This document shows positions 11,203 to 40,592 of a stretch of 64,000 nucleotides of DNA, piece after piece. The DNA comes from Candidatus Marinacidobacterales bacterium (GTDB lineage Bacteria; Acidobacteriota; Vicinamibacteria; Marinacidobacterales; SMYC01): assembly GCA_965237955.1 (NCBI GenBank), contig OZ250169.1, positions 1,824,001-1,888,000 of the forward strand, given 5' to 3'. The notes under the pieces were generated by a model. It was not told where the DNA came from, ran no database searches, and saw only the letters and a program-made list of their open reading frames with translations. The position numbers were made by a program, and so were the translations under genes. Within the stretch, counting starts at the first letter, position 1, and each line of letters begins with the position of its first letter.

Positions 11203-11271
11203 ATGGCAAAAAAGAGAAAGAAAGCTACCAAGAAGAAAGCGGCCAAGAAAAAGGCTGCAAAAAAGAAATAG
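11203..11271 (+). CDS. 22-aa Lys/Ala-rich basic microprotein (MAKKRKKATKKKAAKKKAAKKK)
   Basis: Strong SD (AAGGAGAGGAGG) just upstream of ATG, own promoter and intrinsic terminator; below the ORF-track size cut-off. Confidence 0.8.
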   Translation: MAKKRKKATKKKAAKKKAAKKK

Positions 11272-22201: not shown

Positions 22202-22294
22202 TAAGCTCCCGATCCTTATTCCCCTTTCATAGAAGGGGAAAGGGTGGCTCAATCCGAGTGCAGCGCCGGGTGAGCGGCTACTCCTGGGATTCGT

Positions 22295-23680: not shown

Positions 23681-26389
23681 TTACGCTCCCTCCCTCAGAC
23701 GATGGGCCGCTAGGGCGCCTTCTCGCTCGCGTTCTCTGCGACGGATGAAGATGTAAACGCCGAGCAAAAATACCGGAATCGGCGGCAGCAGTACCGCCAA
23801 CGTGCGGATGCCGCTCTGAATGCGCCGAATCTGGGACTCCATTCTTTGCTCGCTCGCTCGAATCTCGGCGTCCTTCTCGGCGTCGATGTTGGTCTTGAGC
23901 ACGTCGAGCTTTCGGTTTTCGACCTCTTCGAGGTTGCGCGCCATGATTTGCTTTGTCTGGGCGTCCACGTCGTCGCGGACCCGCACTTCGGCGACTTTCT
24001 CGTCCAGCCGGCGTTGTGCCGCGGCGAGCGCCTGCTCGGCGCGCATCTCGGCTTGCGACTCTTCCTGCGTGCGCTGCTCGATGAAATCGCGGGTCTGATT
24101 CTCCACGCGCTCCAGTGTTCGGTGCCGAACCCGCCGGTTCCGGAGAGCCACAAAGGACTCGTCGCCGACGAGCGTGTCCATGGCGTTGAGGAAGAACGTG
24201 ACGTTGTCGAAGTTCAAGTTGCCGGGGCCAATCCGCCGGATCTCGAAGAACTGCTCCGAGATGAAGTCGAGGTCGGCGATGGCGATGACGTGAAGTGGCG
24301 GCCGGGCGGCGACAGCGTTCTCATCGTCGTCCTTGTCGGGCTCGTCGGGCTCGCCCGCGTCCTCTGTGCTGCGCACTTCGGCTGCGAGCGTGTACGTCAT
24401 CGGGTCCGGTTGGTGCGGCAAGTTGCGATTCAACTGAGAGCCCAGGAAATTCCGTTGGACCATCTGGAAATAAGGAAAGCGTCCCGAGATCGCGCCCGAC
24501 TGCAACAAAGCACGATAGGTCAGACCCTCGGCGGAAGCCGAATCGATGTGACCTGGATAGAGCAGCACCAGCTGTTGGAGCTTGGCGCTGGCCGCGTGGG
24601 CTTCGTTGAAGACTTCCGGGTTCTGATTACCGTGACCGAGGAACACGACTTCGGGTGGCAAGTGCGCCAAGTCCGGATGGGGGTTGTAGGTGTCCCACGT
24701 GATCATGGCCGGATCCCACCGGAAACCCAGGCCGGTGAGAAAGCCGCGGATATCGCCTTTCGGCTGTGCGGGTGGCTGTTGCTGCCGCATGAACGGGTTC
24801 TGGCTCGCTCCGGGCTGCTCCGATGGAGCGAGACTCAAGTTCACGATGGGAAGCGGATCCACGAGCAGAAGCGCCGGCGTGCCTAGTCGTATAAAGTCGG
24901 CCACGTTGTCCATTTGCTCTTGGGTGAGCGACGAGGGTAGGGCCACGAGGAGGCCGTCGACGTCTTCGGTGACGGGATTATCCGGCGTGATCTGAACGAC
25001 CTCGTACTGCTTGCGAAGCTCTTCGACCACCGACCACGACGGCGTCGACTGCATCGTCTGAAAGTCCAGCCCGCCGAACAGGCGCAGCGCGGTGTTGATG
25101 ACCCCTATTGTCTTCCGTTCGGTGTTGGCAACGACGCGAATGCTGCGCGCGATCTCGTACTCGGCCGGCAGCCCGCGATCGAAGAACGGGATGACCTGCT
25201 CCTCACCGCCGCAGGTAAAAGCGAGACCCAGGAAGACTTCGCTGAAGCCGGCGCGCGCTCTCTGGTGGTTCGGGATCTGCCGCGGCCCAATACCGAACTT
25301 CTCTCTTGCTTCCCGGGCCTCCTCGCTGAACGGCTCGGTATCGTAGATTGCGATCTGAACGCGTCCGCCGCTCGCCGATGCCACGTCCTTGAGGAGGCCA
25401 ACGACGTTCGCCCGCGTCTGCACGTACTGCTCGGGAACCGTCGGGCTGATGTAGGCCTGCACGAACACCGGCCGATCCCTGTCGATCTGGCCAACCAACG
25501 CCTTGGTCTCGCGGTTCAACGAGTGGAGCCGCTCGGCGGTTCCATCGACACGGAGGCCGAGTCGGCTCACGATCGAAACGCCAGCGACGAGGATGACGAC
25601 GACGGACACGGCGCGCACGAGATGATGTGTCGACATGCGAACCCCGTCTGCCTCACGCGGCCAGTGACGCTGGCTGACGAGGAGCACGTTCAGGTACAGG
25701 AACACGCCGGTGACCGAAACGAAGTAGAGAGCTCCGGTGAAGCTTACGACACCGCGCGCGAAGTCCTCGAAGTGATGGAAGATGCCGAGAGGCGCCACGA
25801 TCCGCGCGAGATCGACGCTCAACGTCCCCGCCATCGCTTCGATGAAAACGCCCATGCTGCAAAAAACAGCGCCGAGAATGAAAGCGATGGTCACGTTCGA
25901 AGAGAGCTGCGACGCCAGCATACCGACCGCGATGAGCGTCGCGCCTATTAGCCAGTAGCCCAGGTAGTTCACCAACATCAGGCCCAAGTCGGGGCTGCCG
26001 AGGAAAAGAAGCACGACGACGTGGCTGAGCGAGAGCACGAGCGACACGGTATAGATGCCGAGCGCCGCGCCGTATTTCCCGAGCACGACTTCTAGATCCG
26101 TCGCCGGCAGCGTGAACAGCAGCTCGTCCGTACCCTGCTTCTTCTCTTCCGCCCATATCGACATGGTGAGCGCGGGCACGAAGAACACGAGGAGGTACGG
26201 AAAGACCGCGTTCAGCTGGTCGAGGTTGGCGAGGTTGTTCAGGAAGAAGCGATCCTGCCAGAAAGCAGCCGCCGCGCTCAAGAAAATGAAAAGGGTAATA
26301 AAGACATAACCAGTGGGATTGCTGAAGTACATGCGCAGATCCCGCTTGGCGATGGCGCGGACGATGTTCCAATTCACGTCTTTGATCAT
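23681..26389 (-). CDS. Fused GldF/GldG-like ABC-2 permease + periplasmic domain
   Basis: AIAKRDLRMYFSNPTGY, PALTMSIWAEEKKQGTDELLFTLP, HFEDFARGV, 'EYEIARSI', IADLDF, C-terminal TM. Confidence 0.85.
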   Translation of the reverse strand: MIKDVNWNIVRAIAKRDLRMYFSNPTGYVFITLFIFLSAAAAFWQDRFFLNNLANLDQLNAVFPYLLVFFVPALTMSIWAEEKKQGTDELLFTLPATDLEVVLGKYGAALGIYTVSLVLSLSHVVVLLFLGSPDLGLMLVNYLGYWLIGATLIAVGMLASQLSSNVTIAFILGAVFCSMGVFIEAMAGTLSVDLARIVAPLGIFHHFEDFARGVVSFTGALYFVSVTGVFLYLNVLLVSQRHWPREADGVRMSTHHLVRAVSVVVILVAGVSIVSRLGLRVDGTAERLHSLNRETKALVGQIDRDRPVFVQAYISPTVPEQYVQTRANVVGLLKDVASASGGRVQIAIYDTEPFSEEAREAREKFGIGPRQIPNHQRARAGFSEVFLGLAFTCGGEEQVIPFFDRGLPAEYEIARSIRVVANTERKTIGVINTALRLFGGLDFQTMQSTPSWSVVEELRKQYEVVQITPDNPVTEDVDGLLVALPSSLTQEQMDNVADFIRLGTPALLLVDPLPIVNLSLAPSEQPGASQNPFMRQQQPPAQPKGDIRGFLTGLGFRWDPAMITWDTYNPHPDLAHLPPEVVFLGHGNQNPEVFNEAHAASAKLQQLVLLYPGHIDSASAEGLTYRALLQSGAISGRFPYFQMVQRNFLGSQLNRNLPHQPDPMTYTLAAEVRSTEDAGEPDEPDKDDDENAVAARPPLHVIAIADLDFISEQFFEIRRIGPGNLNFDNVTFFLNAMDTLVGDESFVALRNRRVRHRTLERVENQTRDFIEQRTQEESQAEMRAEQALAAAQRRLDEKVAEVRVRDDVDAQTKQIMARNLEEVENRKLDVLKTNIDAEKDAEIRASEQRMESQIRRIQSGIRTLAVLLPPIPVFLLGVYIFIRRREREREGALAAHRLREGA

Positions 26390-27141
26390 GATGCCGGTGC
26401 CTCTGCCGTGTTCTCGTTCTGGGTCAGACGATAGAACGGTTCCTCGAGCGAGCCGCCTTCTTTGAGCTCGTCGGCGGTGCCTTCGAACACCAGCCGGCCG
26501 TTGTGAACGAACAGCACGTGGTCGGCGATCGCCGCGACCTCTTGAAGAATGTGCGTCGAGATGAGGATGGTCTTGTCACGCCCGAGCTTCTTGATGTTGT
26601 TGCGAAAATGACGAATCTGGTTGGGGTCGAGCCCCGCGGTGGGCTCGTCCATGATGAGGACGTCCGGGTCGTGAAGAAGCGCTTGCGCGAGCCCGACGCG
26701 CTGGCGCAAGCCGCGCGACAGCTTGCTGATGGGCTTTTCCAGAACCTCGTGGAGCGCACACAGGTCGCGAACGTCGGCGATCCGCCTTTTGAGCGTCGTC
26801 GGGTCGATCTCGCGCGCCTCGCCGAAGAACTCGAGGAGCTCGAGCGGCGTCATATCGAGATAGAGCGGTCCGTTCTCGGGCAGATAGCCGAGTCTCTTCG
26901 ACGCCGCGATCCGTTCTTTGTGGACATCGAGTCCCGCGATCCGAGCGGAGCCTGCGCTCGGCGCGAGATAGCCGGTGAGCATTTTCATCGTCGTCGTCTT
27001 GCCGGCGCCGTTCGGCCCTAAAAAGGCCACGATCTGCCCCTCGGGTATCGAGAAGCTGATGTTGTCCGTCGCGACGAAAGGCCCGTAGTACTTGGTCAGG
27101 CCACAGGCTTCGATCATCGTTTTCGAAGATGCTTCCTCCAT
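26386..27141 (-). CDS. ABC transporter ATP-binding protein (GldA-like)
   Basis: GPNGAGKTT, LSRGLRQR, LIMDEPTAGLDP, STH; AGGAGG before ATG 27141. Confidence 0.92.
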   Translation of the reverse strand: MEEASSKTMIEACGLTKYYGPFVATDNISFSIPEGQIVAFLGPNGAGKTTTMKMLTGYLAPSAGSARIAGLDVHKERIAASKRLGYLPENGPLYLDMTPLELLEFFGEAREIDPTTLKRRIADVRDLCALHEVLEKPISKLSRGLRQRVGLAQALLHDPDVLIMDEPTAGLDPNQIRHFRNNIKKLGRDKTILISTHILQEVAAIADHVLFVHNGRLVFEGTADELKEGGSLEEPFYRLTQNENTAEAPAS

Positions 27142-27341
27142 CGAACGAATACCTCCTGAGCGATCGTTGTCGTTAACGGTCGGCAGGCGGGAGCGCGCGC
27201 GACCGAACCAGATTCTACTCAAAGCGTTTCGCGGAGACAAGTCGATTGCACGCTGTAAGCGATACAAATAAAAGATTTAAACCCAGGTAGTGAAATAACC
27301 CTTTGAAAAAGCTTAGTATTCGAGCCTAAGCCGTCGACCAC

Positions 27342-30005
27342 ATGTCCCAGCGCAAACGCTTTCTCGTGCCCGAGGTCGTCCAATCGTCGGGGATGGACTG
27401 TGGTCCAGCCGCGCTCAAAGCGTTCGTCGAGGGCCACGGAGTGTCGGTGAGCTATGGCCGACTGCGCGAAGCCTGCCAGACCGACGTCGACGGGACTGCG
27501 ATCGAGACCCTCGAAGAGATCGCGAACGAGCTCGGCGTTCTCGTGGAGCAAGTCATGCTCCCGAAAGATCTCGTGCTGCTCGAAGAGGCTGAAGCGCTGC
27601 CGTGCATTGCAGTCATGCGGCTTCCGAACGGCAACACCCACTTCGCGGTGATTTGGAGCGTGGTCGCAGGCATCGTCCAGGTGATGGATCCAGCGACGGG
27701 ACGCCGGTGGATGACGCGTGGCCAGCTCGTGCACGAGCTCTACGAGCACAACCTGCCGGTGCCGGCCGGAGACTGGCGTGAGTGGGCGAGCTCTGAGCAG
27801 GGACTGGGCCTCCTCACAAGACGTCTTTCCGCATTGAATGTTTCGAAGGGCACGGTCGACGAGCTCATCAGGAAGGCGCTGTCGGATCCCAGCTGGCGAT
27901 CGCTCGCGGCGCTCGACGCGGCCGTGCGCGCGGTGCGATCCATGCTCGATGCCGGCGCGTGCCGCAGTGGTGACGAAGCGGCGTCCCTCGTCGCTACGTT
28001 ATTCAAAGATGCCGACTCCATCCCCAGGAGCTACTGGTCTACGAAAGCGTTGCCGGATGCGCCTGGGCCAGATACTGATAACGACGTCGTGGACGAGATC
28101 ATGATCAGGGGCGCGGTACTCCTGCGACTCGACCGATCGCCCGCGAGCGAGAGAGTTTCCTCGCCGTCGCTTTCGCGGGCAATCGAGGCGGCGCGTGACG
28201 AAGAGCCGGCCCGGCCGGGGTGGGAGCTTTGGTCGCGGATCCGTGAAGACGGGCTCCTCACGCCGGCGGTCCTTGTCGCGGCGTTTGCCGGCGCCGCCGC
28301 AGCGGTTGTCATCGAGGCTCTTTTGTTCCGGTCTCTTCTCGAGCTCGCGCCGCTCTTCGGGCTTTCCGAGTATCGCGTCGGCATCGTCGGCGCCCTTCTC
28401 GCGTTCATGTTGGTAGCACTCGTGATCGACTACGCCGCGATCACCGGCGAGCTTCGTATCGGCCGGCGCTTGGAGGCGCGACTTCGGGTCGCGTTTCAAG
28501 AGAAAATCCCGCGGCTCGGAGATCGCTACTTCGGCAGCCGGCTCATCTCCGACATGGCGGAGCGCAACCACAGCATCCACTTGTTGAGGACGCTGCCCAA
28601 GCTCGCGGGCCAGCTCCTGCGGACGAGTTTCGAGATGGTTCTCACCACGGCGGCGATTATCTGGCTGGAGCCCGGGACGAGTGTGGTGGTGCTGCTCGTC
28701 GTGGCCGCGTCGCTTGTGATCCCGCTCGCGGGCCAGCCCGTGTTTCAAGAGCGCGATCTTCGGGTGCGAAGCCACGTCGGAGCGCTGAGCCGGTTCTATC
28801 TCGATGCGCTCTTAGGACTGATTCCGCTACGCGTCCACGGCGCGCAGAAACCGATTCGGACCGAGCACGAGAGTCTCCTCGTCGAGTGGGCGCGCGCGCG
28901 GCTCGGATTGCAACGGATGGCCACAGGCCTCGAAGCCGCGCAGTTTTGCGTCGGCTACGGTTTGATTGTGCTGTTGCTGCTCTCGTACTTGAATCAAGGC
29001 GGTGAGCCGGCGGCGGTGTTGCTCCTCGCTTACTGGGCGTTGAATCTTCCCGTGCTCGGTCTTCAGCTCGTTCGGCTCGCGTGGCGCTACCCGGAGCAGC
29101 GGAATACGGCTCTGCGTGTGACTGAGCCGCTCCGCGCGAGCGAGGAGTCTGAGCAAGCGCCCGTCGCTGACCGCACCCCCTTGGGCACGGGTCCTATTGC
29201 TATTCGATTGGAGAACGCCACGGTACGCAGGGCGGGTCACGTCATTCTCGACAACCTCGACGTCGACATCGACGCTGGCAGCCACGTCGCGATCGTCGGC
29301 CGATCGGGCTCGGGCAAGACGAGTCTGTTCGGTCTTCTGCTCGGCTGGCACTTTCCCGACGAAGGCCGAGTCCTCGTCGACGGTTCCATTCTGGGCGGCG
29401 AGCGTTTAGACGAGATGCGGGCGCGTACCGCCTGGGTCGACCCCGCAGTGCAGATCTGGAATCGCAGTCTCATCGAGAACCTTCGCTATGGGAACGACAA
29501 CCGCGCGGAGTTTCCGCTGGCAACGATCGTCGAGCAAGCCGAGCTCTTGCCGGTGCTCGAGATGTTGCCCCAAGGACATCAGACGCTGCTTGGTGAGGGA
29601 GGCGGCCTCGTTTCCGGCGGTGAAGGCCAACGAGTTCGGCTGGGACGAGCCCTGTTGCGGCCGGATGTTTCCCTCGTGCTCCTCGACGAGCCGTTTCGCG
29701 GTCTCGGGCGTGAGCTGCGCGCGGTGCTTCTGCGACGAGCGCGCGCGCATTGGCGGGAGGCCACGCTTTTGTGCATCACCCACGATATGAGCGAGACCGA
29801 GGGATTCGATCGCGTGCTCGTCCTCGACGGGGGCCGTATCGTCGAAGACGGACCACCGGGCGAGCTCTTGTCTCGGAAGAGCTCGCGATACCGCGCGCTC
29901 GTCGATTCCGAACGTGAGCTCAGGTCGCTTTGGTCCGACGGTTCGTGGCGCAAGTGGGAAATCCGCGACGGTGCGATTCACGAGCGTGAGCATGAGGCCC
30001 TTTGA
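27342..30005 (+). CDS. Peptidase C39-containing ABC transporter (PCAT), subunit 1
   Basis: VVQSSGMDCGPAAL (catalytic Cys), THFAVIW (His), VMDPATG (Asp); TM domain; GRSGSGKT, VSGGE, LLDEP, ITHD. Confidence 0.9.
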   Translation: MSQRKRFLVPEVVQSSGMDCGPAALKAFVEGHGVSVSYGRLREACQTDVDGTAIETLEEIANELGVLVEQVMLPKDLVLLEEAEALPCIAVMRLPNGNTHFAVIWSVVAGIVQVMDPATGRRWMTRGQLVHELYEHNLPVPAGDWREWASSEQGLGLLTRRLSALNVSKGTVDELIRKALSDPSWRSLAALDAAVRAVRSMLDAGACRSGDEAASLVATLFKDADSIPRSYWSTKALPDAPGPDTDNDVVDEIMIRGAVLLRLDRSPASERVSSPSLSRAIEAARDEEPARPGWELWSRIREDGLLTPAVLVAAFAGAAAAVVIEALLFRSLLELAPLFGLSEYRVGIVGALLAFMLVALVIDYAAITGELRIGRRLEARLRVAFQEKIPRLGDRYFGSRLISDMAERNHSIHLLRTLPKLAGQLLRTSFEMVLTTAAIIWLEPGTSVVVLLVVAASLVIPLAGQPVFQERDLRVRSHVGALSRFYLDALLGLIPLRVHGAQKPIRTEHESLLVEWARARLGLQRMATGLEAAQFCVGYGLIVLLLLSYLNQGGEPAAVLLLAYWALNLPVLGLQLVRLAWRYPEQRNTALRVTEPLRASEESEQAPVADRTPLGTGPIAIRLENATVRRAGHVILDNLDVDIDAGSHVAIVGRSGSGKTSLFGLLLGWHFPDEGRVLVDGSILGGERLDEMRARTAWVDPAVQIWNRSLIENLRYGNDNRAEFPLATIVEQAELLPVLEMLPQGHQTLLGEGGGLVSGGEGQRVRLGRALLRPDVSLVLLDEPFRGLGRELRAVLLRRARAHWREATLLCITHDMSETEGFDRVLVLDGGRIVEDGPPGELLSRKSSRYRALVDSERELRSLWSDGSWRKWEIRDGAIHEREHEAL

Positions 30006-32113
30006 TGTCGATGCGACATAGCTGGCCGCGCGCTCGGCTGGGCGAAGGGCTGAAAGCGCTTGCGCGGAAGAGCGGGATGCCGGTTTCGAGACCAGACTCG
30101 AACGAAGACGCGCCCCCGCCTCCGGCGGAAGGAGAAAATCTAGGCGAGTGGATGGACGCCGGGGCGCGCTGGCTCGGCATCGAAGCTACGGCGTTGAGCT
30201 TGCCGCACCCCGAGCTCGCGAGTTTTCTCCGCGCTCCCGGGCCCGCCATCGTGCGGGTGGCGGACGATGAGTTCCTCCTGGTGATGTCGGCGACGCGGCG
30301 TGAGCTTCGAGTTCTCGGCGATGACGGCCAGCCGCATCGCGTGGCTCGAGACGCCGTCGCGCGCGCCCTCGAAGAGCGGATTGGTGGCGACGCGGAGGGC
30401 GAAGTCGAAGCGCTCCTCGAGAGCGTTTCCTTGTCGGCTCCCGACAAGGCACGTGCTTACATGATCGAAGAGCGTCTGAACGACGAGACCATCGACGATA
30501 TCTGGCTCGTGCGCTCGCCGCCCGGCGCGAGCGTCGCCGAAGATGTGCGGCAATCGCGCGTTTTGCGATTTTTGGCGGCGTTCGTGGGCACCTACTTCAT
30601 CGACTACAGCCTGTTCATCGCTTCGTGGTGGCTCATCGGCCGCGGTGCGCTGCGCGGACAGATCGATTGGGGCTGGCTCACAGCGTGGGCGCTCTTGTTC
30701 GCCACCATGGTGCCGTTCCGCATGATGTCGACGTGGTACCAGGGACGAACCGCGGTCGCGGCGGGTGGGCTCCTCAAGCAGAGGCTCTTGCTCGGCGCCA
30801 TGCGCCTCGATCCGGACGAGACCCGTCAGGATGGATTCGGCCGCCATCTCGCCCGCGTCCTCGAATCCGAGGCCGTCGAATCGTCGGCGATGAGCGGCGG
30901 TCTGCTCTCGGCAGCAGCCAGCATGGAGCTCGTCATCGCGGCGGTGATCCTGTCGTTCGGCTCCGGCGGTCTCCTCCACGTCTTCCTTCTCGTCCTCACC
31001 GTGTTCGCGTGCTTCCTGGTCGCGTGGCGGTATTTCGTATCGCGGCGCGCGTGGACAGGAGCGCGCTTTCGCATCAGCCACGATGTGCTCGAGCGCATGG
31101 TGGGTTATCGCACACGACTGGCGCAGTTGCGCCCCGACGCCCGGCACGAGCGCGAAGACGAAAGCCTGGCGACGTATCTGGAAGTCTCCCGCGACGCCGA
31201 CCGTCTGTACGGCTGGCTAGCGGTGTTCGACCGGCTGTGGTTGCCGATCGGTGTGTTGGGTCTCGCGCCGGGCTTCATTGTTGGTCAAGCGACGCTCGGA
31301 CGGTTGGCGGTCGCACTCGGCGGCACCGTCCTCGCTGCGCGCGGACTGCAAAAGCTCGCGGACGGGCTCGCGGATCTGCTCGATGCCTGGATCGCGTGGG
31401 AGCGCATCGCTCCGCTCTTTCATGCTGCAGGCAGACGACCAGCTCCCGGCGACCCGAACGTGTTGAGTCTAGCGCGCCGACAAGGGGCGACGTCGAACGG
31501 ACGGCCGCTCCTGGAAGTGAAAGAGCTCAGCTACCGCTACGCCAATCGAAGCGAGCTGGTGATTCGCGGCGCTAGCTTCGGCGTCAAGACGGGCGACTGC
31601 ATTCTGCTGACGTCGCGATCCGGTGGTGGAAAATCGACGTTGGTTTCGCTCGTCAACGGACTGCGGACTCCCGCCACCGGAACGTTGCTCCTCGATGGCG
31701 TCGATCGGTTGAGTCTTGGCGCCGAAGCGTGGACGCGCCGGATCGCGACCGCACCGCAGTTTCACGAGAACCACGTCTTCACCGAAGTGTTCGCGTTCAA
31801 TCTCCTCATGGGCCGTCGCTGGCCTCCGACCGCCGAAGATTGGCGTGAAGCCGAAGGCCTCTGCCGTGAGCTCGGGCTCGGCGAGCTCCTCGACAAGATG
31901 CCCGGCGGGATGAACCAAATCGTCGGCGACACCGGCTGGCGACTCTCGCACGGCGAGCGCAGCCGGCTTTACTTGGCGCGCGCGTTGTTACAAGGAGCCG
32001 AGCTCGTGCTTCTCGACGAGAGCTTCGCCGCCCTCGACCCCGATAACTTGAGACAGGCGCTCCTCTGTGCACGGGAGAAAGCCGACACCCTCGTGGTGAT
32101 CGCTCACCCCTAG
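30002..32113 (+). CDS. ABC exporter subunit 2 (degenerate C39-like N-terminus, degenerate ATPase motifs)
   Basis: Overlaps subunit 1. No DCG motif; TM domain; Walker A SRSGGGKS, signature LSHGE, LLDES; ends right at the H-loop (VIAHP*). Confidence 0.85.
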   Translation: MMSMRHSWPRARLGEGLKALARKSGMPVSRPDSNEDAPPPPAEGENLGEWMDAGARWLGIEATALSLPHPELASFLRAPGPAIVRVADDEFLLVMSATRRELRVLGDDGQPHRVARDAVARALEERIGGDAEGEVEALLESVSLSAPDKARAYMIEERLNDETIDDIWLVRSPPGASVAEDVRQSRVLRFLAAFVGTYFIDYSLFIASWWLIGRGALRGQIDWGWLTAWALLFATMVPFRMMSTWYQGRTAVAAGGLLKQRLLLGAMRLDPDETRQDGFGRHLARVLESEAVESSAMSGGLLSAAASMELVIAAVILSFGSGGLLHVFLLVLTVFACFLVAWRYFVSRRAWTGARFRISHDVLERMVGYRTRLAQLRPDARHEREDESLATYLEVSRDADRLYGWLAVFDRLWLPIGVLGLAPGFIVGQATLGRLAVALGGTVLAARGLQKLADGLADLLDAWIAWERIAPLFHAAGRRPAPGDPNVLSLARRQGATSNGRPLLEVKELSYRYANRSELVIRGASFGVKTGDCILLTSRSGGGKSTLVSLVNGLRTPATGTLLLDGVDRLSLGAEAWTRRIATAPQFHENHVFTEVFAFNLLMGRRWPPTAEDWREAEGLCRELGLGELLDKMPGGMNQIVGDTGWRLSHGERSRLYLARALLQGAELVLLDESFAALDPDNLRQALLCAREKADTLVVIAHP

Positions 32114-32242
32114 TCCCCTGGATCTTTGATTACTATACAAAGTTAGGCTTTTCGCCAGCCCATAAGATTCATAAGATTCATGCACTTAGAATGGTTTCGG
32201 CAAGCTCTGCTTTATCTAGTTTGTTCTGATACAGGGGACTAG
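32110..32242 (-). mobile_element. IS630-type MITE (133 bp including both CTAG)
   Basis: Ends CTAGTCCCCTGGATCTTTGATTAC and (revcomp) CTAGTCCCCTGTATCAGAACAAACTAGA match the right and left ends of the IS630 at 34501-35689; no ORF. Confidence 0.88.
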
Positions 32243-32349
32243 TCGGCGTGGTCGTCCACCTTCGCTTTGGTGATCAGCGCGACTTCGGTGGCGCCCGCGG
32301 TGCGGCAGCGGTCCATCATCTCGAGCACATAACCGTACTGGAGGCGTTT
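32239..32349 (-). pseudogene. 3' remnant of an exbD/tolR gene
   Basis: Manual translation KRLQYGYVLEMMDRCRTAGATEVALITKAKVDDHAD* aligns with the ExbD C-terminus at 3465-3570 (GLEYRDVMRVMELCRDGGADEIGLITEK); 5' part absent. Confidence 0.75.
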
Positions 32350-32498
32350 TCGACGCGTTCTGAGGGGTTGGACACCGTCCCGGGGAAGAGGTTCCGTGCT
32401 GGGAAGTCCGTGGTACGGACCTCTCGAAGCGTTACTTTTTTACACAGCATTGTGGGCTTGACACCACGAAAAAGCGTCTCGATATATGACCATTTCGA

Positions 32499-33943
32499 GG
32501 AGATGCCCCTGAGATAGTTGAAGGTTAGGAGTGGCGGCTCCTAAGGCCGGGTTCGATAGAATCCGGCTGTGAAGGAAAAAGAAAGGAGCCACCACGATGT
32601 CAAATTACCAAATCATCGATGCGAAGAACAGGAAGAAGCTTCGAGAGATACTGAGCTCGAAGGGGCAAGCTCTGTTGCCGTTCTTGGATGCGATTGAGCG
32701 AACCGAGATAGCGATCGACGAAGTGATCGACGTTGCTGGCCGAGCGACGATCGAAGCGGTCTTGGATCTGTCAGCCCAAAGTGTGGCTGGGGAGAAACAC
32801 CTGGGGAAGAAGGGTAGCGATGTTCGCTGGCACGGCCGGCAGGGTGGCGTAGTAAGCCTTGCGGAGCGGAAGTTGAGAGTGAGCCGGCCACGTCTGCGGC
32901 GTAAGGGAAAGGCAGAGGGAGGGGAGGTTGCGATTCCTGCCTACGAAGCGGTGAACAACTCGTCTCGGCTGAGCCAACGCATCTGGGAAATCCTGATGCT
33001 GGGTGTGTCGACGCGCAAGTACGCGTCGGTTCTTCCCGAGATGGCGGAGACGGTAGGGGTTAGCAAGAGCGAGGTGAGCCGTGAGTTCGTGGAAGCAAGC
33101 GCGGAGCAGTTGCAGGGGCTGATGGAGCATCCGCTGGACGAGCTGGAGATCGCGGTCGTGTACCTGGACGGGATTCGCTTCGGCGAGCACCACGCGCTGG
33201 CGGCAATCGGCGTAGATACAGAGGGATACAAGCATGTTCTGGGGCTTCGGGATGGAGCATCGGAGAACCAGATAGTGTGCAAGGCGCTGCTGGAGGACCT
33301 GGTCGAACGAGGCCTGAGCCCAGAGCGGTGTCGGCTGTTCGTGATCGATGGCTCCAAGGCGCTACGGGTCGCCGTCGACGCTGTGTTCGGTACCCACAAC
33401 AAGGTCCAGCGTTGCAGGAAGCACAAGGAGCGCAATGTGCTCGGTTATCTGCCGCAGGAGCTGAAGCCGCAAGTGCAAGCGAGCCTGCGTTCGGCCTGGC
33501 AGCTCCCAGCAAAGAAGGGCAAAGCGCGGTTGGAGCAACAGGCGAAGTGGCTCGAGGACGACTACCCCTCGGCGGCGGAGAGCATCCGGGAGGGGCTCGA
33601 CGAGATGTTCACCATCAACGAGCTCGACCTCCCCGCATCTCTGAAACGCTGCCTTGGATCGACGAACATCATCGAGTCGTGCTTCAGCGGTGCGCGAGGT
33701 CGTACCCGTCGCGTCACCCGCTGGCGCAATGGCAAGATGGTTCTGAGATGGGCCGCTTCGGCTCTGCTCGCCACGGAGAAAAATTTCCGTCGTATCATTG
33801 GATACCAATCGCTACCGATCCTCGAAGCGAAGTTAGCGGAGGTCACTGAGAATCAAGCGCTCGACAAGCACGCCAAAGTCGGGTAAACCATGTGTCAGGA
33901 GCCGCCACCACCTCGAACCTTCAACTATGGTGGGGGCACCTCC
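32499..33943 (+). mobile_element. IS256-family insertion sequence (1445 bp)
   Basis: TIRs GGAGATGCCCCTGAGATAGTTGAAGGTT and (revcomp) GGAGGTGCCCCCACCATAGTTGAAGGTT; 8-bp DR CATTTCGA (32491-32498, 33944-33951). Confidence 0.93.
32597..33886 (+). CDS. IS256-family transposase
   Basis: GVSTRKY, YLDGI, FVIDGSKAL, QRCRKHKERN, STNIIES. Confidence 0.95.
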   Translation: MSNYQIIDAKNRKKLREILSSKGQALLPFLDAIERTEIAIDEVIDVAGRATIEAVLDLSAQSVAGEKHLGKKGSDVRWHGRQGGVVSLAERKLRVSRPRLRRKGKAEGGEVAIPAYEAVNNSSRLSQRIWEILMLGVSTRKYASVLPEMAETVGVSKSEVSREFVEASAEQLQGLMEHPLDELEIAVVYLDGIRFGEHHALAAIGVDTEGYKHVLGLRDGASENQIVCKALLEDLVERGLSPERCRLFVIDGSKALRVAVDAVFGTHNKVQRCRKHKERNVLGYLPQELKPQVQASLRSAWQLPAKKGKARLEQQAKWLEDDYPSAAESIREGLDEMFTINELDLPASLKRCLGSTNIIESCFSGARGRTRRVTRWRNGKMVLRWAASALLATEKNFRRIIGYQSLPILEAKLAEVTENQALDKHAKVG

Positions 33944-34033
33944 CATTTCGATGCTGGCAACGACTGTAGTCATGAACGTTGCAACATGTCTCTTAAGCGG
34001 GTAAAGAGGCAAATCTAATAAAGGAGTACTTCG

Positions 34034-34096
34034 ATGAAAGTCAAAACCCGAATCCAATCTGGTAGTGGTGGAAACCAGTTCAATCACTATCCCTGA
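34034..34096 (+). CDS. 20-aa putative exported peptide precursor MKVKTRIQSGSGGNQFNHYP
   Basis: AAGGAG at 34021-34026, 7 nt before ATG; SG/GG cleavage-type motif; terminator directly after; downstream of a C39 exporter. Not in the ORF track. Confidence 0.72.
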   Translation: MKVKTRIQSGSGGNQFNHYP

Positions 34097-34109
34097 GCGT
34101 AATTAGTAC

Positions 34110-34138
34110 AGGGCAGCCTTGTAGCTGCCCTTTTTTTT
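34110..34138 (+). terminator. Intrinsic terminator of the peptide gene
   Basis: AGGGCAGC-CTTGTA-GCTGCCCT hairpin plus T8. Confidence 0.85.
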
Positions 34139-34500
34139 GGGACTTATACCTATGGCTTGACACGCGCCCGCCGCTTCCGGTGGGCGGCGAGGCTGGATTT
34201 GGCATGGCGCTTGCGCTTGCGCTTCCGCTCGTCGTCACCGTCCTGCGGCTTAGGTTTGATTTTTTTGGTGCGTGGTAGCGGGCGTTTTCTAAGCAAGTCG
34301 TTTATTTACAACTGCTTAGGTACGAGGTGTGGATCGTAATAAGTCATCGTGTCTCCCGTTGGGAGACAGCCGGACGAGCCCGGCCTCGGTGAGTTCGGGC
34401 GCTGTGGGCTGCGCCAGCAGCCCAGCCATGTAGCGGCGGCGGATTTCCCTGTTTCCTAGCGGCTTCCGTGTTCCACTATCGCCCTTATGGGGTTGTCAAG

Positions 34501-35689
34501 CTAGTCCCATGGAACAGAAAAAGCTAGACAACACTGGCACTTCTGTGATCTGCTAAATGCATGAAACACAAGGGCCGGCGAAAAGCCGAATTGAAGCTGT
34601 CGTCTCAAGAAAGCGAAGCGCTGACGCGACTGGCGCGACGCAGCCGTAGTTCGCCGCACCAAGCCTTCCGAGCGAAGATCGTGCTGGATTGCGCGGCGGG
34701 TCTGACGAATATGGAAGTTGCTAGGAAGATGCACACCATGAGGAGCACGGTGGGCAAGTGGCGAAGACGCTTTGTAGAACAACGAATGGAAGGGTTGTAC
34801 GACGAACCTCGGCCGGGAGCGGCTCGCAAAATCGGCGATGACCAGATCGAGGAAGTCGTGACCAAGACGCTGGCGACGACTCCAAAGGGGAGAACCCATT
34901 GGAGTACGCGCTCGATGGCCAAGCATCTTGGGCTGAGTCATTCGACGATTGGACGTATTTGGCGAACGTTCGGGCTTCAACCGCACCGCTCGGAATCGTT
35001 TCGTCTCTCGCAAGACCCACAACTGGTCGAAAAAGTACGCGACGTTGTTGGCCTGTATATGAACCCACCGGATAACGCGGTCGTCCTGTGCGTCGACGAG
35101 AAATCGCAGATTCAAGCGCTCGAGCGTGCTCAACCTGTCCTGCCCATGAGCTTGGGCCAGCCCGAGCGACAAACCCACGACTACATTCGGCATGGAACGA
35201 CTGACCTGTTTGCCGCACTCGACGCCGCAACAGGTGAAGTCTTCGGAAAGTGCTACGCGCGACATCGAGCGCTAGAGTTCAAGAAGTTCCTCGCTGAGAT
35301 CGAAGCAGCCGTTCCCAGCGAGTTGGACATCCACGTCGTGCTCGACAATCTCGCCACGCACAAGACACCGGCGATCAAACGCTGGCTTTCCAAGCGACCT
35401 CGCTTCCACTTTCACTTCACACCGACACACGCCTCTTGGCTCAACTTCGCTGAGCGCTTCTTTGGCTTGCTCACCGAACACGCCTTGCGACGAGGCTCGC
35501 ACACGAGCGTGCCTCAGCTCCGCGTTGCGATACAAGACTATCTCGATGCTCACAACGAGAACCCAAAGCCGTTCAAGTGGACGAAATCCGCCGACCAAAT
35601 CCTCGAAACCATCGCTCGGTTCGCCCAGCGAACGCTCGATACACATGGCAAATCGAATTTGGACAGTAATTAAAGATCCAGGGGACTAG
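34501..35689 (+). mobile_element. IS630-family insertion sequence
   Basis: CTAG at both ends; CTAGTCCCATGG... / ...CCAGGGGACTAG. Confidence 0.92.
34561..35673 (+). CDS. IS630-family transposase
   Basis: [52 protein letters not shown]. Confidence 0.95.
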
Positions 35690-35795
35690 CGGTATAAGTC
35701 CCTTTTTTTTTGCGTGGACCCTCCTTTGGCTTGGTTCACGGCGGCTGAGCGTCGTTTTCACGAACCGCACGACAGGTTCGGCAGACCTGGTGGGA

Positions 35796-38700
35796 TCACC
35801 GGACGTTCAAGGTCGCGGGTTCGTCCATCTTGCGCCGTAAGTCTTCCGCACGCTCGACGATGCGAACCCCGTCGAACTCGGTGGCGATCGTTATCGATTG
35901 CTCGATCTCCACAAGCGCGCGTTCGGGCTCGCCGAGAGCGATGTAGAGCTCGGCGCGGCTGGCGCGCGCGATGGCTTGGAGCGGGCGGAGACGGCGTCCT
36001 TCGATGGTGCCGATCACCTGGGAAAGAAGCTCGGAAGCCATGCGCACGTCGTTGGCGTCTAGGCGTGCACGTGCGAGCTCTAGAGTCGCCTCGAGCTCAA
36101 GCTCGAGATACCCGCTCTTTTGCGAAAGCTCCCGCGACGCGACCAGCGTGCTCGACGCTGATTTTGCTTCCCCTTTTGTCCGAAGCAGAATCCCTCGTAC
36201 GAGTTGTAGCAAGGGTTCTAGACCCTCGGTGTCGACTTCACTAAGCGCTTTGTCCGCACTAGCCAATGCGTGCTCCGCCTCGGCGATGCGATTCTGAACG
36301 AGGTGCAGCCGCGCTTCCTGTATCTTCGATTGAGCGATACGCGCCGGGATGTGCTGCGCGTCGCTTACCGTTAGGCTTTCGACGACCGACTGCATCGCCT
36401 CTTCGTAGCGCCCCTGGTCGGCGTAGATTCTGGATAGCTCTTCATGAGCAGCCGCAGCGTCCGCTAAGTTACCTGTTTCTTGGAGCAGCGGAATCGAGCC
36501 CAAGAAAGCCTCGATGGCTTCTTTGTAATCGCCCTTGACCCGGTAGATTTGACCGTGATTGAAGAGATTGTAGGCGCGTCCCTTGGGATCGTTGGAAGCG
36601 GCGATGTGGACTTTGGCCTGCTCCAAGTAAACCATCGCGTCGGCGTATCTGCCTAGGAGAGAGTAGACGTGCCCAATCATGTTGAGACGATCGGTAAGCT
36701 CCGAATGCTGTTTGCGCTCCCACTCGATCTCGAGCGAGTCACTATAGTTGGTGAGAGCTTTCTGCAAGAAGCCTGAGCTTTCATTGACGGAGCCGAGGTT
36801 GATGAGCGCGAAGGACTCCATCGTGGAGTTACCAGTGTCACGAGCGATTGATAGTGCTTCGTCGAGAAGCGTGCGCGCCTGCTCTAGCTGGCCCATGTGC
36901 TGGTGTACCGTCGCTAAGTTCGTAAGCGTGGCGCTCACGCCGCGGCTGTTCTCCGCGGTTCGGCGGTAGTCTAGTGACTTCTGAAGCTCTTTGGTCGCAA
37001 CGTCGAATTCATTCAAGTCTCGATGGAGCGACGCCCAGGATCGAGTGGATCATCCCGAGCGCCTCGAAATCGCCCTTGAATGCGCCCGCATCCACGGCTT
37101 GCTCGAGAATCGGGATCGCCTCGCGGGTCCGCTTGTTCGTCACGAGCATGCGCCCCAGTCCCAAGAGCGCCCCCCCGTATTGGGGGTCGCGCTCGAGCAC
37201 ATCACGATATTTGCGGATCGCTTCGTCGACTTGTCCCATTGTCTCGAGCGAGCTCGCGAGGCTGTACAGAACGCCGGGATCGTTGGGATAAAGCTTCTGG
37301 AGCTCGCGATAGCTCTCGACGGCCGTCTCCGGGTCGTCGTGGATCCGGGCGGCAATCGCGTGTACCTCGTACCTCTCGCCTCGCGGTAGCTGGACGATTT
37401 GCGCGAGACGCTCGGCTTCGGCGATGGCCTCGCGAGCGCCTGACTCGTTTCCGAGGTGGAAGAACGCTTCGGCGAGGCGCGCGTGCGCCATGGCGAAACC
37501 TGAATCCTCCGCGATCGCCTCTTGGAAAAGAGGCACCGCGGCTTGGTTCGCACCGTCATGAAGCGCATCGAGACCCTGGTGGTACGCTCGAAAGGCCCCC
37601 AACGATGCCGTGGAAACTTCGTGGATCGGTCGGTCGACCCCCGCTTCGAGGTCCAGTTCCTTCGCAACCTCCACGGTGATGGCGTCCACGAGGCCGAAAA
37701 CCTCGGTAGCTGGGCCGTTGATCTGAATCGGTGTGCTGACCCCGGTTCGGCTGTCGCGCAGAACTAGATCCATCCGCAGCTGCTCTTGTGCTTCCACGAA
37801 GCGTCCGTGCAGGGAGACTTGCGCGTCCGCCATTTCCGAGACAACACCAAGCGTTTGCTCGTCGAACCGGCTCTGGCCCTCCTTGCCGAGATCCTTCAGG
37901 ATTTGATTCATGTGCGCTGGCGTCACCGGTCTCAACGTGGGTGACTGCGAGATATCGGTAATCAACATCTCGGGGATACCGATCTCCATCCACGCCAAAT
38001 CTTGGGCGCCGGTCACGTTGTGGAACGGGAGCACCGCGAGCGTGGTGGTTGGAACATCGGCGGCCACACGCGGAGGTGGCTGGGTCAGGTTGTACCAAAC
38101 GCCGACACCGAGCGCGCCTGCGAGACACGCTGCAGCGACCCAGCCTGGCCTACGGCTCACGGCCTTCTTCGTGCGGAGCCACAACGAGGAGTCGACTTGC
38201 TCGCGCGTCAGGTCTTCGAGCACTTCTTCCGCGCTGTGGTAGCGAAGGTCCGGATCCGCTTCGAGGCATTTGAGAATGATGCGCTCGAGGTAGCCAGGGA
38301 TATCGGGATTCGACTCGCGTGGAGAGGGAGCCTTCGTCTGAATTCGCGCGACGATCTTCGAGATCGCCGTGTCGCCTTTGAACGGCGTTTCGCCGGTGAG
38401 AAGCTCGTAGAGAATCACGCCGAACGAGTAGAGGTCCGACTGGGCGTCCGCGGTCTCACCTTTGACCTGCTCGGGGGAGATGTAATCGGGGGTTCCCATC
38501 ATCTCGCCCGTGCCCGTCATCGTCGCCGAGTCGGCGGTGCGAGCGATGCCGAAGTCCATGATCCGGACGACCCCGCGGCCGTCGACCATGATGTTCTGCG
38601 GCTTGAGGTCCCGGTGCACCACGCCTTGGCTGTGGGCTTCGGCGAGCCCGCTCAGCATCTGCTTCATGAACGACAGCGTCTCGGCGACGGGGACTTTTTC

Positions 38701-39267
38701 TTTCTCGTCCAACACCTCGCGCAAGTTCGCCCCTTCGATGAGCTCCATGGTGAAGAACTTCATCCCCTCGAACTCGCCGAGGTCGTAGATGCGGATGACG
38801 TTCTTGTGGGTGACTTTGCGCGCGAGGATCAGCTCTTGCTTGAAGCGCTCGAGAATTTCGCGGCTCGTGCTCTTCTCGGCGCGGATCGTCTTGAGCGCCA
38901 CCGCCCGGTCGAGCTCGAGATCGAGCGCTTTGTAGACGCGGCCCATGCCGCCTTCGCCGAGTTTCTGGAGGATTTGATAGCGATTGCCGAATCGGAACAG
39001 TCGAGGTAGCTCGCCGGTGTACTGGGATGGGGTCGAGAACCGCCAAAGCGACTCACGCGGACCGACCTCGTCGTCCTCGGACATCTCGCGAGCGGCGCGC
39101 AGGAGCTCGTCGGTCTCGGCCGAGGTGGTGCGTGAGCCGCCGATCATCTCGATCGGATCGGTCTTCGAGTCATCCTCTGGCTCGAACGCATTTACCAGGA
39201 GCGCGTTGCAGAGCGCGCACTCCATGCGGTCCGCGGCATTGTCGCGGCCGCAAGCTGGGCAATCCAC
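35796..39267 (-). CDS. Membrane Ser/Thr protein kinase with N-terminal Zn ribbon and extracytoplasmic TolB-N-like + TPR domain (+1 frameshift near 37025)
   Basis: CPAC...CALC; LGEGGMGRVYKA, VALK, HRDLKPQN, MDFGIA, YISPEQ; TM; 'LAVLPFHN'; many TPRs. Deleting one G at 37025/6 gives ...ILGVAHRDLNEFDVA..., fusing ORFs 37009-39300 and 35796-37016. Confidence 0.85.
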
Positions 39268-39429
39268 GGTGGAGCGACCCCCCCCAAGAAAGCTTTTCAA
39301 ATGGACTGTATTGGTGCTGTACTTAATATTGTGCGGGGCTTCCCGGCTAAGATCAACCCTTCAATTCGCTCGGCGTTGCGGCGTAATGCCAATTGAGTTA
39401 ATGTGTTACGTCCTTTTGGGAGGTTTGAG

Positions 39430-39830
39430 ATGCGACGTTGCCCTGTGATCTGGCTCGTTGAGCTTCTGTGCACCCGCTCCCGAAACCCCCCTCGCCCGAT
39501 GGTGGAAGGGGAACCTTCACACGCACTCGTTCTGGAGCGATGGTGACGATTACCCGGAGATGATCATCGATTGGTACAAGACCGCGGGCTACGACTTCGT
39601 CGCCCTGTCCGAGCACAACACGCTCGCCGAGGGCGAGCGTTTCATCGGCGTCGCCGAAAACGGTGGGCAAGAGCTCCTCGACGTGTACAAGGCTCGCTTT
39701 CCCCGACTGGGTCGAGGAACGGCGCACCAACGAAGGCGTGCATGAGGTGCGTCTCGAGACTCTCGAGGAATACCTCGACCAAGCTGAAGGAGAACCCGTA
39801 TCGGCAACGGGTACCTTTTTTGCGGTGAAT
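39430..39830 (+). pseudogene. Truncated and frameshifted PHP-like metallohydrolase
   Basis: WWKGNLHTHSFWSDGDDYPEMIIDWYK...DFVALSEHN, followed by a frame break and an end at about 130 codons. Confidence 0.7.
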
Positions 39831-39893
39831 TAGGTTGTCGCTAGGGTCGTCTTGCACGATCGGCGCGGTGTGCGTCATGCTAGGAAGTTAACT

Positions 39894-40592
39894 ATGGCTA
39901 GCGACGGACCTTCTCAACCTCCTCAACCTCCTCAAACGGGACCACCGGCACCCGCGGAGCCCGAGCTCGCGCCCTACATGATCGAAGGCGCTCGCTCGAG
40001 CCGCTCGAAGTGCAAGAGTTGCCGGAAGAAGATCGAAAAAGGAGTGCTGCGCCTCGGCGTTCTCATCGAAGGGCCCTATGGCGTCGGATACCTGTGGCAT
40101 CACCTCACCTGTGCCGCGAAACGACGGCTCGACGACGTCGAAGCTGCCTACGAGCGCGAGGCTTGGAAAGAAGCGAAAGAACCTCCGGAAGACGTGCCTT
40201 CGATCGAAGAGATGCGCAAGCTCAACGAAGAGGCGGAGGAAAAGCGCGAGCAACGAAAGAAAATTCCGTTCGCTGAAGTGGATCCGTCCGGTCGAGCGAA
40301 GTGCAAGCATTGTGGCGAGGTCATGGAGAAAGGAAGTCTCCGCGTGGTTCTCGGCCGGGAGATCGAGTTCGGAAGCCAGTACCGGACGATGCCGATTCAC
40401 GTGCACGGGTTGTGTGTCGCCGGCGAGATCGAGAAAGTCGACTGCAGCACGCTATCAGAAGGCTTCGAGCATTCACTTCGCCAGAACACCCGCGGGCTTA
40501 CTGAGGAACAGGTCGAATCGGTGTTGAAGGATATCGGCGAGCTTCCCGACGACCCCGAGACTGATGAGACTGAGGACGCCCCGCCGTTTTGA
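39894..40592 (+). CDS. Protein with two PARP-type zinc fingers
   Basis: IEGARSSRSKCKSCRKKIEKGVLRLG...WHHLTC and AEVDPSGRAKCKHCGEVMEKGSLRV...HVHGLC (CxxC...HxxC). Confidence 0.8.
   Translation: MASDGPSQPPQPPQTGPPAPAEPELAPYMIEGARSSRSKCKSCRKKIEKGVLRLGVLIEGPYGVGYLWHHLTCAAKRRLDDVEAAYEREAWKEAKEPPEDVPSIEEMRKLNEEAEEKREQRKKIPFAEVDPSGRAKCKHCGEVMEKGSLRVVLGREIEFGSQYRTMPIHVHGLCVAGEIEKVDCSTLSEGFEHSLRQNTRGLTEEQVESVLKDIGELPDDPETDETEDAPPF

Follow-up and report, generated by a model that had tools for sequence, protein, structure and literature searches.

The locus considered here raises the question of whether an open reading frame (ORF) of only 20 codons, lying in an AT-rich patch downstream of a C39 transporter pair, is a gene at all, and, if so, how its product might be cut and exported and what might receive it. 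A preliminary description of this part of the window (the whole 64-kb stretch of DNA that was analysed) had proposed a hidden gene with an ultra-short double-glycine-like leader, linked it to the transporters, and suggested that a motif search of the genome and of metagenomes would recover paralogues sharing the leader. Here we compare the locus with its relatives and weigh the explanations that they allow.

The peptide gene and its conservation

The gene and its immediate signals comprise the following features:
34021..34026 (+): Shine-Dalgarno sequence AAGGAG, 7 nt ahead of the ATG at 34034
34034..34096 (+): precursor gene of 20 codons, MKVKTRIQSGSGGNQFNHYP, supported by the ORF listing, by relatives and by the codon-position pattern
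34034..34063 (+): ten-residue leader MKVKTRIQSG, delimited by conservation in relatives and by strain divergence at 34057-34062
34064..34093 (+): predicted mature core SGGNQFNHYP (GNQF motif plus four-residue tail), placed by the leader boundary
34110..34138 (+): intrinsic terminator-like hairpin plus T8

Each local signal named in the preliminary description (AAGGAG-7 nt-ATG, the ORF, a GC hairpin with T8, an AT-rich patch) was recovered in place. The hairpin at 34110-34131 has eight pairs, six of them G-C, and runs into the T8 at 34131-34138, while the GC content over 33944-34138 is 0.44 against 0.605 for the whole window. The hairpin has a folding energy of -15.4 kcal/mol (z -2.0), with 12 of 200 shuffles folding as well. 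The pairing of a ribosome-binding site (RBS) with such a terminator is rare: the 8.13-Mb genome holds 344 ORFs of 10-50 aa preceded by AGGAG, and two of them, the peptide gene included, have one. The sole other such micro-ORF, MAKKRKKATKKKAAKKKAAKKK at window position 11203 (C1:1835203), is Lys/Ala-rich and histone-like.

Comparative sequence analysis makes it nearly certain that the 20-codon ORF is a real coding gene served by a conserved promoter and a terminator of its own. A motif-free listing of short ORFs in the 11 assembled gaps between the second transporter gene and the tetratricopeptide-type (TPR) gene of relatives returned an RBS-led ORF with the leader in every one, and in six it was the sole short ORF. 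Across 17 genomes (the source genome, the 11 relatives with assembled gaps and five reached from the kinase side, with the unpublished genome G027 counted here and used likewise for the tree and for alignments A2, A4 and A5), the majority-base frequency over leader codons 2-10 was 0.84, 0.88 and 0.47 at codon positions 1, 2 and 3, respectively. When loci were found through the first transporter subunit (PCAT1) alone, 15 of 23 held a short leader ORF, the remaining eight being mostly short contigs. A degenerate leader pattern matched 17 places in 12 of 61 genomes, while its reversed control matched none; PCAT1 is present in all 11 relatives with a match and the 38 relatives lacking PCAT1 yielded no match, although these genomes are kin and not independent. 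The family consensus reads M-K-V/I-K-T-x-V/I-K/R/Q-A/S-G, and the closest relatives of PCAT1 belong to Acidobacteriota, including Ca. Marinacidobacterales and Vicinamibacteria.

Extending the leader pattern to metagenomes gave 122 loci, with about 1300 stretches estimated in total. The 121 loci analysed contained 156 distinct closed ORFs, 110 of them of 30 aa or less, and a PCAT was present in 12 of the 23 leader-found loci of at least 5 kb; two further matches fell on viral contigs. A start of the type M-K-V/I-K-T-x-V/I-K-A-G, a short ORF, an RBS and a nearby member of the PCAT clade occur together at the present locus. The hidden gene of the preliminary description is thus borne out by codon-position conservation, the 11 of 11 gaps and the silent reversed control; its ultra-short basic leader, compared there with MKxKTxxKAG micro-ORFs, proves common to many relatives, its link to the C39 transporter pair is upheld by co-occurrence in relatives and metagenome loci, and the motif search it suggested recovered paralogues and relatives with a shared leader and hypervariable cores.

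Database searches returned little. The precursor has no match in Pfam or NCBIfam, profile searches with nine longer leader relatives gave no family match bar one at chance level (E 0.015), and an Rfam scan of eight loci gave nothing at E<=0.5. The peptide is absent from an exact look-up in 15 billion proteins, in which one of five queries was found, as an unnamed protein. Contigs from the RNA runs X17 and X18, which were found mostly through IS256 words and cannot show absence of a transcript, cover mobile elements only and reach neither the ORF nor the end of the second transporter gene.

Two leader paralogues occur elsewhere in the source genome. The first, at C1:2641341(-), encodes MKIQSKIKAG-CPYIKTEP (L065; compare L225 and L227) upstream of a moaA-like gene, and its upstream motif TGGCA..CCTGCAAT, which we take to resemble a sigma-54 promoter, is common to the G017 and G018 loci, where the coding unit is present in tandem copies with TGA/TAA-CC junctions. 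The second, at C1:3208796 (L068), has the same leader and no early in-frame stop; it lies ahead of a signal-peptide TPR gene into whose later frame its own frame runs, and is preceded by a conserved GC-rich stretch that has no Rfam match. Orthologues of this second paralogue are found at L220:2121(-) and L216:6349(+), and in G011 it is a clean 17-codon ORF. In seven loci (L010, L021, L093, L121, L144, L166 and L180) tandem precursors repeat leader and core with an NHNQT motif, and other leader subfamilies have VSRCxGI ends or xxWGx hexapeptides.

Promoter and mobile elements

The region upstream and downstream of the gene holds a promoter-like block and several mobile elements, of which IS256 and the two MITE-like elements were absent from the preliminary description, as was the convergent kinase-TPR gene considered below:
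32110..32242 (no strand): IS630-type MITE of 133 bp in the PCAT2 stop codon, 113 copies
32431..32487 (+): conserved promoter-like block, from the relatives' alignment
32499..33943 (+): IS256 (transposase 32597-33886), 35 copies
34139..35702 (no strand): small element (about 375 bp) with GGGACTTATACC ends, in the terminator T-run, 10 copies

The promoter block consists of a GTTAC-n6-TACAC box (32431-32445), a -35 hexamer TTGACA (32458-32463) followed by CCACG, and a weak -10 region. In 12 of 16 relatives TTGACAC[CT]AC is found 75-120 nt ahead of the peptide start, and the box precedes the -35 in 12 of 13 aligned relatives, whose promoters were picked by the hexamer so that its invariance is partly by selection. 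We take the repeat spacing of the box to resemble that of OmpR/GlnR-type sites.

In the source genome IS256 has inserted immediately past the -10 region, where transcription would be expected to start, and increases the distance from -35 to ATG from 123 to 1576 nt. It is flanked by an 8-bp target duplication, CATTTCGA, at 32491-32498 and 33944-33951, as are 22 of the 27 full IS256 copies by perfect duplications of this length. A contig of run X4 joins 32473 directly to 33943 and represents an IS-free allele of a somewhat divergent strain (one contig, depth 3.2), and because of this allele the insertion near the expected start site is recent. Joints free of the MITE were likewise found in runs X1 and X4. 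The GGGACTTATACC-ended element, of a kind that inserts in terminator T-runs, carries a nested IS630 at 34501-35689 (39 copies). Three insertions in all lie no more than 2 kb from the peptide gene.

With IS256 between promoter and ORF, expression of the peptide in the source genome would need read-through, and the circuit here is possibly muted by this insertion together with a frameshift in the kinase gene. A reading compatible with any mechanism, to which we give somewhat less than an even chance, is that the family is functional while the source-genome copy is silent and its partner kinase a pseudogene. A scan of 32500-35500 detected no promoter-like site. The kinase reading frame is lost near 37016, with similar decay in G012, G015, G018 and G033. 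On the other hand, the ORF, RBS and terminator are intact, and IS256 is co-oriented with the ORF and has no T-run of five or more on the ORF strand, so that read-through is possible. Furthermore, the kinase frameshift may be an assembly error, given that 3 of 33 tested loci of the source assembly are frameshifted; the sequence alone is compatible with either error or real decay. The lesions in the four relatives, in which transporter or kinase genes are truncated, frameshifted or interrupted (L086, L088, L071, L084 and L218), either stem from long-read errors or mean that the locus has decayed more than once.

Exporter, leader boundary and candidate receptor

The transporter genes upstream of the peptide are:
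27342..30005 (+): PCAT subunit 1 (PCAT1), with C39 peptidase, membrane domain and ABC domain
30002..32113 (+): PCAT subunit 2 (PCAT2), an ABC half without the catalytic C39 motif

PCAT1 carries the catalytic residues Q14, C20, H100 and D116, the Gln/Cys/His/Asp set being invariant in 38 homologues, and its C39 profile matches include the solved structures of PCAT1, ComA and LahT. PCAT2 bears the signature LSHGE and, as in nearly all relatives, stops at the H-loop (IAHP*), which suggests, on sequence features, that the two subunits form an asymmetric heterodimer, the single such transporter pair of the genome. Shortening of PCAT2 by the MITE in its stop codon could be ruled out, as relatives end at the same IAHP. 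A Gld-like ABC operon (22295-27267, -), encoding an ATPase, a GldF/GldG-type fusion and a DUF4340 protein, is divergent from PCAT1 and adjoins it throughout family f1, not f2. An HlyD gene precedes PCAT1 in many relatives, whereas the source-genome orthologue is unlinked (C1:6707436-6708611, behind a small kinase gene), and the pair of HlyD and small Ser/Thr kinase at C1:6707436-6709770 matches a kinase-HlyD pair ahead of PCAT1 in G029 and G031; the ancestral HlyD-transporter locus seems to have been split in the source lineage. No HlyD orthologue was found in 10 of the 16 relatives with peptide, transporter and kinase-TPR genes, including genomes that are 98-99% complete, and delivery to the periplasm alone may therefore suffice.

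Conservation of the peptide across relatives stops at Gly10. Contigs of closely related strains diverge from the window at this same boundary: those of runs X1 and X5 match it to 34057 and then differ, reading A-G and then GVGGGDVY..., while that of X8 matches to 34062, with no listed difference over the 119 nt upstream of the divergence, and then reads AGNQFGHYP. These runs come from three independent studies and are represented by single contigs (depth 4.7-7.9) translated by hand. Because X1, X5 and X8 diverge at the leader end and X8 keeps HYP, close strains differ in the core and the HYP tail is real; its GHYP also rules out the NHYP tail as an assembly artefact. The leader comprises ten residues ending at Gly10, and the product is therefore likely the 10-mer SGGNQFNHYP and not a 7-mer. 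The preliminary description was therefore right that the leader is ultra-short and basic, while its range of 10-13 residues narrows to ten; it had also left the core as either SGGNQFNHYP or NQFNHYP, of which the former is favoured, a GG cut placing glycine instead of a hydrophobic residue at -4.

Among the cores of relatives are GHGGCGKQF, WSGQHGKQF, WKGKKF, SKGKKF, TGRKF, DGGKKF and EGGKKF, and further SGGDGRKF, PGDGKQY, ARRKRRKRF, PSSDRGTGF, PGTGGGHD, WSIRRGRGK and PSIRRGR. The motif G-[KRN]-[KQ]-[FY] occurs in 11 of the 12 cores of the family of SGGNQFNHYP, C-terminally except in the source lineage, and no residue is invariant across 17 cores. Proline at P1' is awkward for a papain-like protease, and Gly10 is followed by proline in 5 of 16 relatives and in 26 of 187 collected peptides, a set whose leader logo is biased by its own search pattern and was not used as evidence of conservation.

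Tail-to-tail with the peptide gene lies the gene that we consider the candidate receptor:
35796..37016 (-): C-terminal TPR part of the candidate receptor, in the other frame
37009..39300 (-): N-terminal part of the candidate receptor, with Ser/Thr kinase, one hydrophobic segment, alpha/beta domain and first TPRs

In six intact relatives this gene is one ORF of about 1140-1260 aa, and in the source genome a one-base shift near 37016 interrupts it. The tail-to-tail arrangement recurs in 16 relatives, one of them a remnant, and in G011, where the transporter lies on the kinase's other side, the peptide gene remains with the kinase. Among 60 relatives, the ectodomain and PCAT1 occur together in 17, the ectodomain only in one, PCAT1 only in five and neither in 37; PCAT1 is thus present in 17 of 18 ectodomain-bearing relatives, which are kin and not independent, and small genomes lack both genes. 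Also syntenic in family f1, and divergent from the kinase gene, is a gene at 39852-40592 (+) for a protein with two PARP-type zinc fingers, query matches to which count for synteny only.

Since the TPR part follows the hydrophobic segment, it is predicted to lie on the side of the membrane away from the cytoplasmic precursor. The modelled ectodomain consists of the alpha/beta domain and a long TPR superhelix (pLDDT 89.7). Its top matches in a fold search, which barely covered the alpha/beta domain, were APPBP2, MalT domain III and APC/C, and it also matched the Rap-peptide complex (Z 22.9, rmsd 4.4, 331 residues aligned) and NprR-NprX (Z 20.6, rmsd 6.5, 340 aligned). These matches are peptide-binding superhelices, but the fold is a generic one. 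Atlas matches of the alpha/beta domain to FlgO, TolB_N and LpoB clusters were all under 0.9 and serve as leads only.

Beyond the immediate relatives the association between peptide and kinase is confined. A TPR-type gene lies beside the leader peptide in 8 of 121 metagenome loci as against 8 of 605 random windows of the source genome, a background of a different genome than that of the metagenome loci. The kinase ectodomain was found at E<1e-12 in none of the 121 metagenome peptide loci, and no peptide lies within 1.5 kb of the kinase homologue in any of 14 loci from other orders. In a quick tree, five kinase copies that lack a peptide fall together in a single nested clade of paralogues (support 99). 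G007 and G015 are exceptions within the main kinase group, their copies being without a peptide as well. A test for ectodomain diversification between pairs with different cores gave no hot spot, and no response regulator was found among the scanned neighbours. The tail-to-tail order may also be inherited synteny around a shared terminator.

Taken together, an explanation to which we give an even chance is that a real gene encodes a precursor that is cut after Gly10 by the C39-ABC transporter and exported as a 10-mer, and that the TPR domain of the kinase senses this strain-specific signal. The individual steps differ in strength. The peptide is probably the substrate of the adjacent C39-ABC heterodimer, with cleavage after Gly10, and in favour of this Ile7 at -4 fits the pocket of LahT (PMC6363468). 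Release of an unmodified core to the periplasm, with HlyD optional, would be the somewhat favoured mode of delivery. Recognition of the core by the kinase-TM-TPR protein via G-[KRN]-[KQ]-[FY], perhaps with feedback on the GTTAC-box promoter, is a tentative proposal for which gene order and predicted fold are the evidence. Other leader peptides also adjoin TPR genes. More speculatively, the system may constitute a circuit of one order of Acidobacteriota, in which a heterodimeric PCAT frees unmodified pherotype peptides of 5-10 residues from a non-helical leader of ten residues into the periplasm, where the TPR superhelix of a Hanks-type Ser/Thr kinase with a single membrane span would read them. 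If true, this would couple an outward-facing RRNPP-like sensor to a receptor kinase resembling those of eukaryotes, and cyclases (TIGR04510) would carry that ectodomain too.

A less probable, though credible, account is that cleavage and export take place as above, yet the product serves in competition or as an antimicrobial, or signals to another receptor, the kinase-TPR gene being no more than an inherited neighbour. Many cores are indeed short, carry positive charge and finish in an aromatic residue, as do WKGKKF and ARRKRRKRF; hypervariability would also suit an arms race, and the kinase link is confined to one order. However, SGGNQFNHYP is near neutral, unmodified cores of 5-10 residues are small for a bacteriocin, the compact gaps between PCAT2 and the TPR gene hold no immunity-like small gene, and the peptide stays with the kinase after the rearrangement in G011.

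We consider it rather unlikely that the peptide is a RiPP precursor whose core is modified before export, whether the modifying enzyme is the kinase-TPR protein or has its gene at another place. What prompts this idea is that the ectodomain, in 17 of 17 members, finds its best NCBIfam match in part of TIGR04510, over about 400 aa and profile positions 262-662, a family named as a putative cyclase of a peptide modification system, and that Cys-rich and NHNQT-repeat leader members exist; the match is far below the cut-off, however, at 92.6 bits against 400. Neither the window genes of 21149-40592 nor 65 neighbours scanned in 12 related loci include a tailoring enzyme, a result with which an enzyme acting in trans would be compatible, the 17 cores share no invariant residue, and the TPR part is predicted to lie across the membrane from the cytoplasmic precursor.

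Primary cleavage after Gly12-Gly13 to give the 7-mer NQFNHYP, or trimming of the 10-mer to the 7-mer, is in our judgement very improbable, despite GG being the canonical motif, X8 having AG at the matching place ahead of NQFGHYP, and the presence, in 11 of 12 family cores, of a glycine ahead of K/R/N-K/Q-F/Y. The 10-mer is favoured because a second small-residue-Gly pair (residues 11-14) is scarce: of 156 metagenome peptides 17 have it, and of 16 syntenic relatives six. Such a cut would leave tripeptides in most relatives; in addition -4 would be glycine, and divergence starts at residue 11. Finally, we reject a chance ORF or non-coding element in an AT-rich intergenic patch, for all that the ORF has 20 codons only, lacks a family match and is absent from the protein collection, on the grounds of codon-position conservation, the fixed place in 11 of 11 gaps and zero reversed-control matches.

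Comparison with known systems

The sequence evidence points to a real, unannotated micro-peptide gene and to a variant of PCAT-exported peptides. As in the double-glycine systems ComC/ComA, CtA/PCAT1 and LahA/LahT, a C39 peptidase with Q/C/H/D is fused to an ABC transporter adjoining a small precursor gene, and a conserved leader with a hydrophobic -4 and glycine at the cut precedes a variable core. According to the LahT study, LahT150 requires the 13 residues closest to the cut, among which -4, -7 and -12 are hydrophobic and lie on a two-turn helix, and is strongly impaired by a change of Leu-7 to Lys (PMC6363468), while canonical junctions are given as GG, GA or GS in another source (PMC10885120). 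In the present family, -4 is V/I/L in 17 of 17 syntenic peptides (Ile7 here), whereas -7 is K/R; moreover, if Gly10 were taken as -2, many members would have W, R, P, D, E or T as residue 11 instead of G, A or S. The leader is thus unlike classical ones in being basic, ten residues long and alternating (V-8/T-6/I-4), with no -12, and in its A/S(-2)-G(-1) junction, and the transporter is a heterodimer with one catalytic subunit and not a homodimer. Of the double-glycine-like character proposed in the preliminary description, the hydrophobic -4 and the Gly at the cut therefore hold, while the A/S-G junction, the Lys at -7 and the missing -12 depart from it. The peptide appears to act like a double-glycine peptide with a PCAT, but outside the classical leader family. 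Since its leader is shorter than the 13-residue motif of characterised PCATs and breaks the -7/-12 rule, this transporter clade must read its substrates otherwise, and so short a tag, accepting nearly every core, would be of practical use in secreting peptides. The leader family, large by the metagenome estimate, goes unseen by gene callers.

The gene layout of many relatives is also that of the NHLM/NHLP trio (TIGR03794 HlyD, TIGR03796 ABC1, TIGR03797 ABC2). In contrast to that system, scores against cut-offs reach just 146.9/853, 100.4/709 and 34.6/156, the leader has 10 residues against more than 70, no NHLP or Nif11 leader is present and HlyD is unlinked. Members of TIGR04510 adjoin NHLP-type precursor genes; the similarity to our system lies in the ectodomain match of about 400 aa, and the difference in the cytoplasmic side, which bears a cyclase in TIGR04510 and a kinase here. 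Searches for literature on TIGR04510 found no paper, and text searches, leader motifs included, that covered the main text of articles in one library found no description of the leader or of a kinase-TPR peptide receptor.

Like the RRNPP systems (Rap/Phr, NprR/NprX, PlcR/PapR, AimR), the locus combines a short, presumably unmodified peptide of 5-10 residues with a neighbouring TPR-superhelix protein (fold Z 15-23). In RRNPP systems the receptor is cytoplasmic and the peptide leaves the cell through Sec before being re-imported, whereas the TPR part here is predicted to be extracytoplasmic on a single-pass Ser/Thr kinase and the peptide is accompanied by a dedicated PCAT; the locus shows neither an RRNPP-type HTH or phosphatase output nor a Sec-type propeptide, the precursor having no hydrophobic signal stretch. 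Hardly any of the many TPR-bearing Ser/Thr kinases of Acidobacteriota is known to have an assigned ligand, and the locus offers a candidate ligand-receptor pair with natural cognate and non-cognate variants.

With ComCDE and Agr, finally, the locus shares a predicted PCAT-exported peptide, a strain-variable, pherotype-like core and an adjoining membrane kinase. It differs from them in its candidate sensor, a TPR-bearing Ser/Thr kinase of the Hanks type in place of a histidine kinase, and in its diderm host, and it adds strain-level core variation pinned to the leader boundary together with a concrete receptor candidate.
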